A stretch of 64,000 nt of DNA from a virus (IMGVR_UViG_3300030060_007423:106802-170801); one strand, 5' to 3'. Shown: positions 23,372 to 29,586, counted from the first letter of the stretch. Notes: generated by a model not told the origin, from the sequence alone. Numbers and translations are program-made.

Positions 23372-23445
23372 GGACCAGTAGCTCAGCTGGATAGAGCAAC
23401 AGCCTTCTAAGCTGTAGGTCATAGGTTCGAATCCTATCTGGTTCA
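23372..23445 (+). tRNA. tRNA-Arg (TCT)
   Basis: Cloverleaf: GGACCAG/CTGGTTC acceptor, GCTC/GAGC D arm, ACAGC-CTTCTAA-GCTGT anticodon arm, ATAGG-TTCGAAT-CCTAT T arm; CCA not encoded. Confidence 0.95.
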
Positions 23446-23593
23446 CAAAGGATAAATTATATGGTAGAATTTTTGAAACATTTTTTTGGAGTATGTGGAG
23501 AACCACATCCCAGTGTACTAACTATCCTAATGGGTACGCCTGTTGTGGGATACATAATTTACAATATAAGACAATATATAAAAGGAAAGAATA

Positions 23594-28138: not shown

Positions 28139-28418
28139 TGCGTCTGAACAAATAGACGACTTAAAAAGTGTTGGCGGTAGTGATGGACTATTTAAGGCAA
28201 TTACAAATATGGGTGAAAAGAATCTAGACTATATGGAAAAAATTGAATCAATAGAAAGACTAATGATTACAACAGAAAGTTTAGATTCTGACATTCATAA
28301 AAATGTTATTGTAAGTTCAAAAGAATATTTATTACAGAATGGTACATTAACCAAAAACATGATGTTGAGCTTAAACCAAATATATACATATTATAAAAAC
28401 ATGCGAGGTAATATATGA
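28089..28418 (+). CDS. Hypothetical protein
   Basis: 109-aa ORF. Confidence 0.5.
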   Translation: MAKANQHVKKVTERLLNASEQIDDLKSVGGSDGLFKAITNMGEKNLDYMEKIESIERLMITTESLDSDIHKNVIVSSKEYLLQNGTLTKNMMLSLNQIYTYYKNMRGNI

Positions 28419-28606
28419 TGATAATTCCAGAACAATACAAAAATGATTTGGATAAAATATATGAAAGAACTAAAAACTCTAATGAAAAAATGTTAATGGA
28501 ATTCAAAAAGTATTTTATGAATGTTGAACCAAAGGAGTTAAATTCAGACTGGGCATGGGTAGCAACACAATGTTATCATGTATATAAAAATAAATCTGAC
28601 CGCTAG
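28415..28606 (+). CDS. Hypothetical protein
   Basis: 63-aa coupled ORF ending at the tmRNA 5' boundary. Confidence 0.45.
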   Translation: MMIIPEQYKNDLDKIYERTKNSNEKMLMEFKKYFMNVEPKELNSDWAWVATQCYHVYKNKSDR

Positions 28607-28822
28607 TACTTATGTCAGCTGCATTCTTGGACCCGGGTTCGAATCCCGGCATCTCCACTAAAACCCATTATGATATGGGGATGACACGGATTTGACAGGA
28701 TGATAAGAGCATAAGGAAGGTCACCGCAACAACTGGCGAACAAGTTGAAATGGCGATGGCAGCGTAGTACGCTCCCTGACCCGAACGGTATAAAAGAGGT
28801 CATGTCGTAAAAACCTCGGAGG
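28596..28822 (+). ncRNA. ssrA: Circularly permuted (two-piece) tmRNA; tag (A)GEQVEMAMAA*; outer boundaries approximate
   Basis: T arm CCGGG-TTCGAAT-CCCGG and 3' acceptor strand CATCTCC-A (28633-28657) precede the 5' strand GGGGATG (28677-28683) with G3.U70; D-loop GGATTTGAC; helix 2 pairings; tag ORF 28735-28767. Confidence 0.9.
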
Positions 28823-28842
28823 ATGGTAGGTAAACTATAATT

Positions 28843-29586
28843 ATGAGCATAGAAACAAAATATTTTTCAATTGACGATTTATATAACGTAGATAACAAAT
28901 CTTCGTTTTGGAAATTTATAGAGGGCGAAGTAAAAGTTGCTTTAAGTAAATCTTCAATGTCAAGTTCAAAAAAAGCAGATGCTCTTAATCTATTTAAGAA
29001 ACAATATATTAAAAAGTTTTTTATAAGACATACTAAATCACCAAGTGATTATAATAAACCTTGGGATTTAGATAAATATGACCTAGAGTCAATTAAAAAT
29101 AATACAGATGGTCAATGGGCACCACCACCTAATGCTGATGACTATAGGTTTGATTTAGAAAATGCTCAATATGTAATTGAAAAATTTATATGGATGCAAA
29201 TACACCCAGATGATAGAAGGGATTTATTTGATAATGATATTGATAAATTTGATGACTGGGTTGTAACATTATCTGAATCACAAATAGATGAAGTTGTACA
29301 AAAAATTCAAAATGGTGAAAGACTAGGTGATCTTGATTATGAAAGTATAAAGGATTCACTATATGAACTTGATGATGGTACAATCAGAGTATTTAAGATA
29401 GACGGATTAATGATTATGTCTTCACTAAATAAAGATTCGCTGGAAACAGCATGCGTAAAAATCTTTATGAAGAAAGGTATAACATTTAAGTATAGAACAA
29501 CTGAAAACTATAAAGGAAAAACTGTACACTCCTATATATTTAGGATTGACGGACGTAATGACAATAAAAATGACAATATGTCATAG
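28843..29586 (+). CDS. Hypothetical protein
   Basis: 247-aa ORF. Confidence 0.6.
   Translation: MSIETKYFSIDDLYNVDNKSSFWKFIEGEVKVALSKSSMSSSKKADALNLFKKQYIKKFFIRHTKSPSDYNKPWDLDKYDLESIKNNTDGQWAPPPNADDYRFDLENAQYVIEKFIWMQIHPDDRRDLFDNDIDKFDDWVVTLSESQIDEVVQKIQNGERLGDLDYESIKDSLYELDDGTIRVFKIDGLMIMSSLNKDSLETACVKIFMKKGITFKYRTTENYKGKTVHSYIFRIDGRNDNKNDNMS

Follow-up and report, generated by a model that had tools for sequence, protein, structure and literature searches.

The question raised by this locus is whether a large marine phage carries a functional two-piece transfer-messenger RNA (tmRNA) gene and from which tmRNA lineage such a gene would have come. We analyzed a stretch of 64,000 nt (IMGVR_UViG_3300030060_007423:106802-170801; hereafter the window), which is the final 64 kb of a 170,801-base IMG/VR virus record with a CheckV completeness of 80%. 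The 170.8-kb record contains T4-like baseplate, terminase, portal, and capsid genes. An earlier note on this DNA had proposed a phage-encoded, circularly permuted tmRNA gene with a rewritten degron. Our analysis indicates that positions 28598 to ~28822 on the + strand very probably constitute a functional permuted ssrA gene of an uncultured marine myophage, and that this gene belongs to a phage-only family that lacks pseudoknot 1 (PK1) and is likeliest to have arisen by a separate permutation.

The check suggested at the time, ARAGORN together with a permuted Rfam model, was run, and both found the gene. ARAGORN called a permuted tmRNA, under its asterisked label for such genes, at 28566-28858 with the tag GEQVEMAMAA followed by a stop codon. 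The Rfam 15 model RF04321 (tmRNA_permuted) matched with 65.6 bits (E 2e-10; gathering score 47), and a local search gave 66.7 bits. The ARAGORN call and the RF04321 score above the cut-off bear out the claim of a phage-encoded permuted tmRNA gene, and all coordinates in the earlier note (T arm, acceptor strands, spacer, helix 2, and tag frame) agree with the sequence. Its expectation that standard annotation would miss the gene was wrong, because both tools detect it at default thresholds. The gene order is permuted, with the T arm, the 3′ strand of the acceptor stem, and the discriminator (28633-28657) placed ahead of the 5′ half (28677-28696). The gene occupies the sole gap free of open reading frames (ORFs) between the + strand ORFs at 28415-28606 and 28843-29586, and its G+C content is 0.49 vs ~0.31 for the surrounding region. 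No tRNA gene overlapping the tmRNA was found by ARAGORN. A tRNA-Arg(TCT) gene lies at window positions 23372-23446 and a tRNA-His(GTG) gene elsewhere in the genome, and no other tRNAs were found in the 170.8 kb.

Two degenerate patterns (“T arm, CTCCA, short spacer, GGGG..GAC”) were searched in IMG/VR and matched 91 contigs, and 43 of the first 45 received a permuted call from ARAGORN. In most loci, a GCA resume codon is preceded by ~90 nt that include PK1, with tags such as ANDELFALAA. The relatives of the window form a separate group, which consists of a near-identical contig (L056/L181) and about two dozen more contigs in IMG/VR. L056/L181 is 95% identical to the window, and its changes fall mainly in the spacer or are compensatory or synonymous. 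Family copies were also present in marine metagenomes, including Tara Oceans (>119 contigs), and 83 distinct copies were gathered from viral and marine metagenome contigs. A family-specific 41-nt pattern of the acceptor piece gave no match in 185,579 prokaryote species genomes (one per species). When the 3.5-kb neighbourhood and the tmRNA alone were compared by blastn with 50,697 phage records, T-arm-sized matches were the only ones obtained, and no RF04321 match above the cut-off was present in the nearest isolates (Mel-JY01 and immuto) or in the nearest uncultured phage record (LR756508). Among these phage records, no cultured relative has a copy of the family. The family is phage-only and common in ocean metagenomes. 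An exact 29-mer (T arm plus acceptor strand) was tried as a probe in IMG/VR and set aside as generic; the two phage tmRNAs that it recovered are one-piece, high in GC, and unrelated. With the upstream endonuclease as a synteny anchor, 80 related loci were obtained, the tmRNA being present only in the near-identical contig, and the tmRNA gene is therefore not tied to its endonuclease neighbour.

We aligned 17 non-identical family members (alignment A3) and counted pairing for a ten-helix model, which comprises P2a-c, the T arm, the acceptor stem, the resume hairpin, the stop hairpin with one outer pair, and a two-stem pseudoknot. Standard pairs were found in 95.6% of the cells vs 37–45% when the partners were slid by 1–3 columns. 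Nineteen pairs were doubly changed, and the observed values were matched by none of 500 shuffles. RNAalifold, run blind on 12 short-tag members, gave the same nested helices. The acceptor stem is 7 bp long, with the G3.U70 pair at G28679.U28654 and A73 at A28657. The stem does not vary among the 17 members, G3.U70 being invariant in 17/17. Among 109 metagenome copies, collected with that end left unconstrained in the search, U70 and A73 were present (xxxCTCCA) in all 109, and position 5-68 covaried (GGGGATG with CATCTCC or GGGGGTG with CACCTCC, that is, A-U vs G-C). The three parts of helix 2 (P2a, P2b, and P2c) were 96–98% paired with 8 of their pairs doubly changed in the 17 members. Stem Y of the pseudoknot occurred as GAGGT/ACCTC, GGGAT/ATCCC, GAAGC/GCTTC, and GGGAC/GTCCC. 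In the stop hairpin, GCG..CGC was replaced by GCC..GGC and A-U by U-A, changes that are compensatory in the stem and synonymous in the tag. The resume hairpin was paired in 97.6% of the cells and was also predicted independently by RNAalifold; four relatives (L140, L141, L145, and L176) carry a U-A to C-G double change in it, which leaves the encoded residue unchanged (CAA to CAG).

In 83/83 distinct copies, the tag frame starts at the same GGC and runs without interruption to a stop codon; 81 of these tags end in AMAA or LMAA. Short tags can be written as G[EATD][QST]V[EYSH][MLY]AMAA, with relatives reading GEQVEYAMAA. Among the short tags, single-base codon differences were synonymous in 354 cases and non-synonymous in 78 (pairwise counts, which are not independent events), and third codon positions varied at 8/10 sites. 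A sister group has tags of 35–37 codons (e.g. GKQVNTTIASIFASLSAIRSLSQETVVAKEQVFAMAA; GKQV...AIRSL...VFAMAA), which start at the same GGC, are open in every variant, and include synonymous AGA/CGA changes. This long-tag sister clade includes L140, L141, L145, L176, and L142, and about 40 metagenome loci. Since the long-tag frames are open from the same GGC, the resume codon is fixed and other candidates are excluded. Two such candidates were considered. GCA at 28726 is in frame in the window and out of frame in L138, L155, L161, L163, and L182, and a very short tag, (A)AMAA from GCG at 28753, was rejected on account of the long-tag relatives being open from the upstream GGC. In regards to the earlier claims, the alanine-identity acceptor stem, the helix 2 formed between the pieces, and the conserved tag frame are all upheld by the family alignment and the tag comparison.

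PK1 is typical of tmRNA and not strictly defining, as plastid and mitochondrial forms without it occur. The resume codon lies 54–60 nt from the 5′ end (G1) in 83/83 distinct copies of the family, and P2c and the resume codon are separated by 12 nt only, so that a classical PK1 cannot fit. Its position is filled by a 5-bp hairpin (28730-28734 with 28743-28747), the loop and 3′ strand of which are tag codons 1–4. The pseudoknots supported in the family number one, downstream of the tag. The coding pieces of two-piece tmRNAs typically keep PK1 and PK2 (PMC3985003), and PK1 is needed for tagging in Escherichia coli unless it is replaced by a stable hairpin (PMC3968760). By analogy, the family resembles a naturally occurring form of that replacement experiment.

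The origin of the gene was examined with the lineage-specific Rfam models. At the gathering threshold, the alpha, beta, and cyano models (RF01849, RF01850, and RF01851) all failed to match, and the one-piece model RF00023 was not reported for the window, which passes RF04321 alone. The same RF04321-only result was obtained for four relatives (L138, L152, L140, and L142). Of 18 loci run through Rfam, 10 passed the full-length beta_tmRNA model and 1 the alpha_tmRNA model, and these 11 other phage loci serve as a positive control. Bacterial genomes were searched for GGCGAA, 6–9 nt, YAMAA codons, and a stop, which gave at least 120 loci. Among the 80 matches listed, about 69 were from Bacteroidota, and the others were from unnamed bacteria, Zixibacteria, Ignavibacteriales, and four metagenome-assembled genomes named for other phyla. 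Zixibacteria and Ignavibacteriales are Fibrobacterota–Chlorobiota–Bacteroidota (FCB) relatives. All usable ARAGORN calls in these GE..YAMAA bacterial loci (91/91) gave one-piece genes, GESNYAMAA and GEYNYAMAA being examples of their tags. The window and the bacterial loci have in common the pre-resume context in which AACU directly precedes GGCGAA (e.g. ...CAACAACT followed by GGCGAA in L190). A tag-region profile built from the bacterial loci gave 3–22 bits for the family and ≤5 bits for nearly all other phage families.

These results indicate that the tag is not a rewritten, non-canonical degron, as had been claimed; a G-E start, an AMAA end, and the AACU context are the normal Bacteroidota/FCB pattern. 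The accompanying statement that Bacteroidota tmRNAs are essentially one-piece agrees with the 91/91 ARAGORN calls and with database counts of 24,380 standard vs 48 permuted calls in Bacteroidota (PMC11915505 Table S2). We favour, as the likeliest origin, a separate permutation of a Bacteroidota/FCB-type one-piece gene over descent from the alpha, beta, or cyano lineages, because the tag and the pre-resume sequence are of the Bacteroidota/FCB one-piece type. An independent permutation, with the lineage-specific models all failing, is plausible but unproven. Among the other viral loci, L165 (tag ANNQEMLMAA), L137/L170 (uncalled), and L157/L179/L014 (VEENFALAA) are permuted tmRNAs that also passed RF04321 only. 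Further unclassified two-piece tmRNA lineages probably exist in phages.

The same molecule may have had another history, in which a beta-like (or alpha-like) tmRNA of an aquatic phage was reduced, lost PK1, and adapted its tag to a Bacteroidota/FCB-type host without an independent permutation. The best lineage-specific Rfam match in a permissive search was indeed beta_tmRNA, and beta-type two-piece tmRNAs occur in many aquatic phage contigs. The stop hairpin GCTGCCTAATTAGGTA is common to the window family and to a GTYNAPLALAA phage family that passes the beta model, and the tRNA-like domain and helix 2 carry no Bacteroidota-specific signal. However, the beta match scored 48.1 bits against a cut-off of 84 and was limited to model positions 76-168/331, the tRNA-like part only. 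Moreover, the tag start, the tag end, and the 4–7 nt before the resume codon match one-piece Bacteroidota tmRNAs and not the beta-type phage genes (AND...ALAA, GCA resume), and the roughly 90 viral loci included no intermediate that carries PK1. We consider this history unlikely, though it is the strongest competitor of a separate permutation.

In regards to function, the steps are proposed by homology with the two-piece tmRNA of Caulobacter. A single precursor RNA would be made, and RNase P would cleave it 5′ of G28677. The 3′ end would be trimmed after A28657, with loss of the 19-nt spacer, and CCA would be added there by a host enzyme, because the gene has CTA at this place; CCA is not encoded after A28657 in the window, and among the 83 family copies CTA follows the discriminator in 61 and CCA in 8. 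The 60-nt acceptor piece and the ~145-nt coding piece would then be held together by helix 2 (17 bp) and the acceptor stem (7 bp), charged by the host alanyl-tRNA synthetase (AlaRS) via G3.U70 and A73, and delivered to stalled ribosomes by host SmpB and EF-Tu. A search of the 170.8-kb phage record found neither an SmpB gene nor one for a CCA-adding enzyme, and the RNA must therefore depend on host factors. Translation would resume at GGC 28735, add (A)GEQVEMAMAA, and stop at the UAG borne by the hairpin. The phage would likely benefit by keeping ribosomes free during infection and by giving truncated proteins a degron recognized by the host.

Alternatively, the RNA might act as a decoy, blocking trans-translation in the host through binding of its SmpB, EF-Tu, or AlaRS. 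Such tRNA-like-domain-only relatives of tmRNA exist in phages; a decoy role was proposed for that of mycobacteriophage DS6A, and the tmRNA of E. coli is inhibited by a molecule of this kind (PMC4131195, PMC11915505). The absence of PK1 might impair tagging. However, purifying selection on the tag frame is clear and the stop hairpin covaries, neither of which a pure decoy would need, and the pseudoknot after the tag is conserved. We therefore regard a decoy as very improbable in comparison with a tagging RNA. A chance match or a decaying relic, like the ARAGORN permuted calls inside phage tRNA clusters of which the false call in Cellulophaga phage phi4:1 is a case, is hardly credible. The Rfam score above the cut-off and the lack of tRNA overlap speak against it, and the 83 distinct conserved copies, the compensatory changes, and the synonymous-biased tags effectively refute it. 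Given the pairing, the double changes, and the shuffles in the 17 members, a chance origin of the gene is far too improbable.

Several points weigh against a functional gene of separate origin. The sequencing runs listed as containing the stretch are marine DNA metagenomes, with no RNA run among them, and the sequence of the window copy does not define where its coding piece ends on the 3′ side. In view of the PK1 requirement in E. coli, the hairpin enclosing the resume codon would have to stand in for PK1 here. The case for the origin draws on the tag region and on the failure of the lineage models, and the tag can converge on the preferences of host proteases. The tRNA-like domain and helix 2 (segments S1 and S3) do not separate Bacteroidota from other lineages; profiles of the Bacteroidota tRNA-like segments, 5′ and 3′, likewise failed to set the family apart from other phage families and carry no information on its origin. 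The sharing of the stop hairpin with the GTYNAPLALAA family belongs on the same side; the family could have branched off, in strongly reduced form, from beta-like phage tmRNAs. Finally, Shine-Dalgarno-like motifs (AGGA/GGAG/GAGG, 5–20 nt upstream) precede 36–40% of the ORFs of this genome vs 10% of random positions, and this usage makes the Bacteroidota host assumed by the earlier note doubtful, leaving the host uncertain.

The positions of the parts of the gene are collected in Table 1.

Table 1. Parts of the permuted tmRNA gene, with positions counted in the window.
Feature	Position	Strand	Evidence or remark
Acceptor piece	28598-28657	+	RF04321 alignment; covariation in P2a-c and T arm
Helix 2, 3′ strands (in acceptor piece)	P2c GACC 28598-28601; P2b CTTATGT 28609-28615; P2a CATTCT 28622-28627	+	
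Near-invariant unpaired stretch (CGCTAGTAC and flanking bases)	28602-28608	+	Between P2c and P2b; alignments A2, A3
T arm, CCGGG-TTCGAAT-CCCGG	28633-28649	+	Sequence; covariation
Acceptor 3′ strand, CATCTCC	28650-28656	+	Discriminator A28657
Intervening spacer, 19 nt, presumed excised	28658-28676	+	Most variable segment of the gene
Coding piece, 5′ part	28677-28722	+	RF04321 alignment, covariation
Acceptor 5′ strand, GGGGATG	28677-28683	+	Followed by D-loop analogue GACACGGATTTGAC
Helix 2, 5′ strands	P2a AGGATG 28697-28702; P2b GCATAAG 28709-28715; P2c GGTC 28719-28722	+	
Resume-codon hairpin, CAACT-GGCGAACA-AGTTG	28730-28747	+	Resume codon GGC 28735-28737 in loop; at usual place of pseudoknot 1
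Tag frame, GGC GAA CAA GTT GAA ATG GCG ATG GCA GCG TAG	28735-28767	+	Encodes (A)GEQVEMAMAA and stop; ARAGORN
Helix 5-like hairpin	28761-28773	+	Stop codon TAG 28765-28767 in loop; compensatory changes
H-type pseudoknot 3′ of tag	28785-28817	+	Covariation
Pseudoknot stem X	ACGGT 28785-28789 / GTCGT 28804-28808	+	96.5% paired
Pseudoknot stem Y	GAGGT 28796-28800 / ACCTC 28813-28817	+	All five pairs doubly changed
Purine-rich 3′ tail	28818-28842	+	Conserved CGGNGG, then AGGT-like box ~13 nt ahead of ATG 28843

The spacer ranged from 11 to 27 nt across the family, and that of the window differs from that of L056 while the remainder is 95% identical. Four long-tag relatives (L140, L141, L145, and L176) have an intrinsic terminator in place of the 3′ tail. 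A scan for sigma-70 promoters and terminators gave no signal above the shuffled expectation on the + strand. Most family members (e.g. L143, L155, L161, and L182) have a conserved GATATTTATA box 3–4 nt 5′ of the first paired base of the acceptor piece. The position of this box suggests that the 5′ end of the RNA may be set by transcription initiation. The window (28575-28597) and L181 have TATATAAAAA(T/C)AA instead of the GATATTTATA box, overlapped by the end of the upstream ORF. That ORF is a 63-codon candidate at 28415-28606, and its TAG stop falls inside the near-invariant unpaired CGCTAGTAC of the acceptor piece.

We compared the host signals of this genome with those of its nearest relatives. 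The closest isolate is Microcystis phage Mel-JY01 (TerL, 59%), and Flavobacterium phage immuto (TerL, 55%; baseplate wedge, 42%) is also close. The genome shows a G peak at −11 to −8 upstream of its ORFs, and the Shine-Dalgarno-like motif was found at 25% in Mel-JY01 and at 5% in immuto, below its own control. Across the family, the motif was found at 22% in short-tag loci (302 ORFs) and at 4.8% in long-tag loci (168 ORFs), with controls at ~7%. The nearest bacterial hsp20 cluster is mostly Bacteroidota. The tag type, the closeness to immuto, and the hsp20 cluster speak for a Bacteroidota host, the chances of which are roughly even. The long-tag phages look like Bacteroidota phages, and the short-tag clade of the window has either a host that uses Shine-Dalgarno sequences or a ribosome altered by the phage.

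A bS21 homologue of 112 aa (PF01165, 37.9 bits) is encoded outside the window, between the portal and major capsid genes (G000:C1:20677-21012; L325:1381-1716, +). As cited in PMC9723584, Jha 2021 reported that Tyr54 of Bacteroidota bS21 stacks on the anti-Shine-Dalgarno sequence. The phage protein has Arg where the bS21 proteins of four Bacteroidota genomes have Tyr54, a lead drawn from these four genomes only. Mel-JY01 and LR756508 also encode bS21, with a non-aromatic residue at this position in both, and immuto has no bS21. The phage bS21 is 35–40% similar to those of the four Bacteroidota genomes and 27% to that of a Zixibacteria genome, with similar E-values to other bacteria in the PDB, and the host is not settled thereby.

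Two-piece tmRNA is a textbook example of permutation in an RNA gene, for which, to our knowledge, origins are recognized in no more than three lineages of bacteria and in mitochondria. We tentatively propose, as an idea that falls somewhat short of an even chance, that the family represents a fourth two-piece origin, within phages from a Bacteroidota/FCB-type gene, and performs trans-translation without PK1 by means of the resume-codon hairpin. As part of this proposal, the split between short and long tags would suggest adaptation to two host translation regimes, or the phage bS21 would re-programme Bacteroidota ribosomes. If true, a fourth lineage that is phage-borne and abundant in the ocean would be an independent replicate of tmRNA permutation. 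It would also provide a natural test of a minimal tmRNA, with no PK1, one pseudoknot, and about 205 nt of mature RNA. With a tmRNA and a phage bS21 in one genome, the phage offers a concrete way to ask why genes for translation rescue occur in large marine phages. Current tools find the gene but would lump it with known lineages unless the lineage-specific models are checked.

A phage-borne permuted tmRNA is not new as such. Phage two-piece tmRNAs were published for Methylophilales phage Melnitz, pelagimyophages, and cyanophages, and 53 of 133 unique phage tmRNAs were two-piece (PMC9004378); about 90 were also found here in IMG/VR by two patterns. The tmRNA database of 2025 holds 79 phage sequences from RefSeq and classes permuted genes as alpha, beta, or cyano only (PMC11915505). 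Our literature search found no paper describing a PK1-less G-E...AMAA tmRNA family. Cellulophaga phage phi4:1 (KC821632.1), listed with a permuted tmRNA in Table S1 of PMC9004378, was considered as a precedent and rejected as an ARAGORN artefact (L186:2428-3089), the call spanning three tRNA genes and reaching only 15.6 bits with RF04321.

The family can be compared with four known systems. With the two-piece tmRNAs of aquatic myophages (PMC9004378), it shares the permuted order in a large marine phage, a short excised spacer, a tag ending in hydrophobic residues and Ala-Ala, and the lack of a detected phage SmpB. Those tmRNAs and the IMG/VR relatives tested pass the full beta or alpha models, keep PK1, and have ~90 nt before the resume codon, whereas the window family passes RF04321 only, has its resume codon at +54–60 in a hairpin loop, and has a G-E...AMAA tag. 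A further difference is that no glutamine riboswitch match in the window reached the Rfam gathering threshold.

One-piece tmRNAs of the Bacteroidota type generally carry PK1–PK4. The one-piece Bacteroidota/FCB tmRNA (RF00023; tags GESNYAMAA, GEYNYAMAA, and GENNYAMAA) shares with the phage family the GGC-GAA resume site, the AACU context, and the [Y/M]AMAA end, and many of its Bacteroidota members have the GGNUUUGACAG form of the D-loop analogue, as in the phage family. However, it is in standard order and 355–407 nt long, whereas the phage copy is permuted and about 225 nt long, and the middle of the tag is SNY or YNY in place of the phage QVE.

In the two-piece tmRNAs of the alpha, beta, and cyano lineages, the acceptor piece is encoded first, as here, according to Keiler 2000 and Sharkady and Williams 2004 as cited in PMC3985003. 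These lineages also share with the family the holding together of the pieces by the acceptor stem and helix 2, and fewer pseudoknots. They typically keep PK1 and PK2 (PMC3985003), whereas the family has no PK1 and was not found in the bacterial genomes searched. The remaining likeness is to an engineered E. coli tmRNA in which a stable hairpin takes the place of PK1 (Tanner 2006, as cited in PMC3968760), so that it likewise has a small hairpin between helix 2 and the tag frame. The engineered molecule is artificial, whereas the phage family is natural, and the loop and 3′ strand of its hairpin encode tag codons 1–4.

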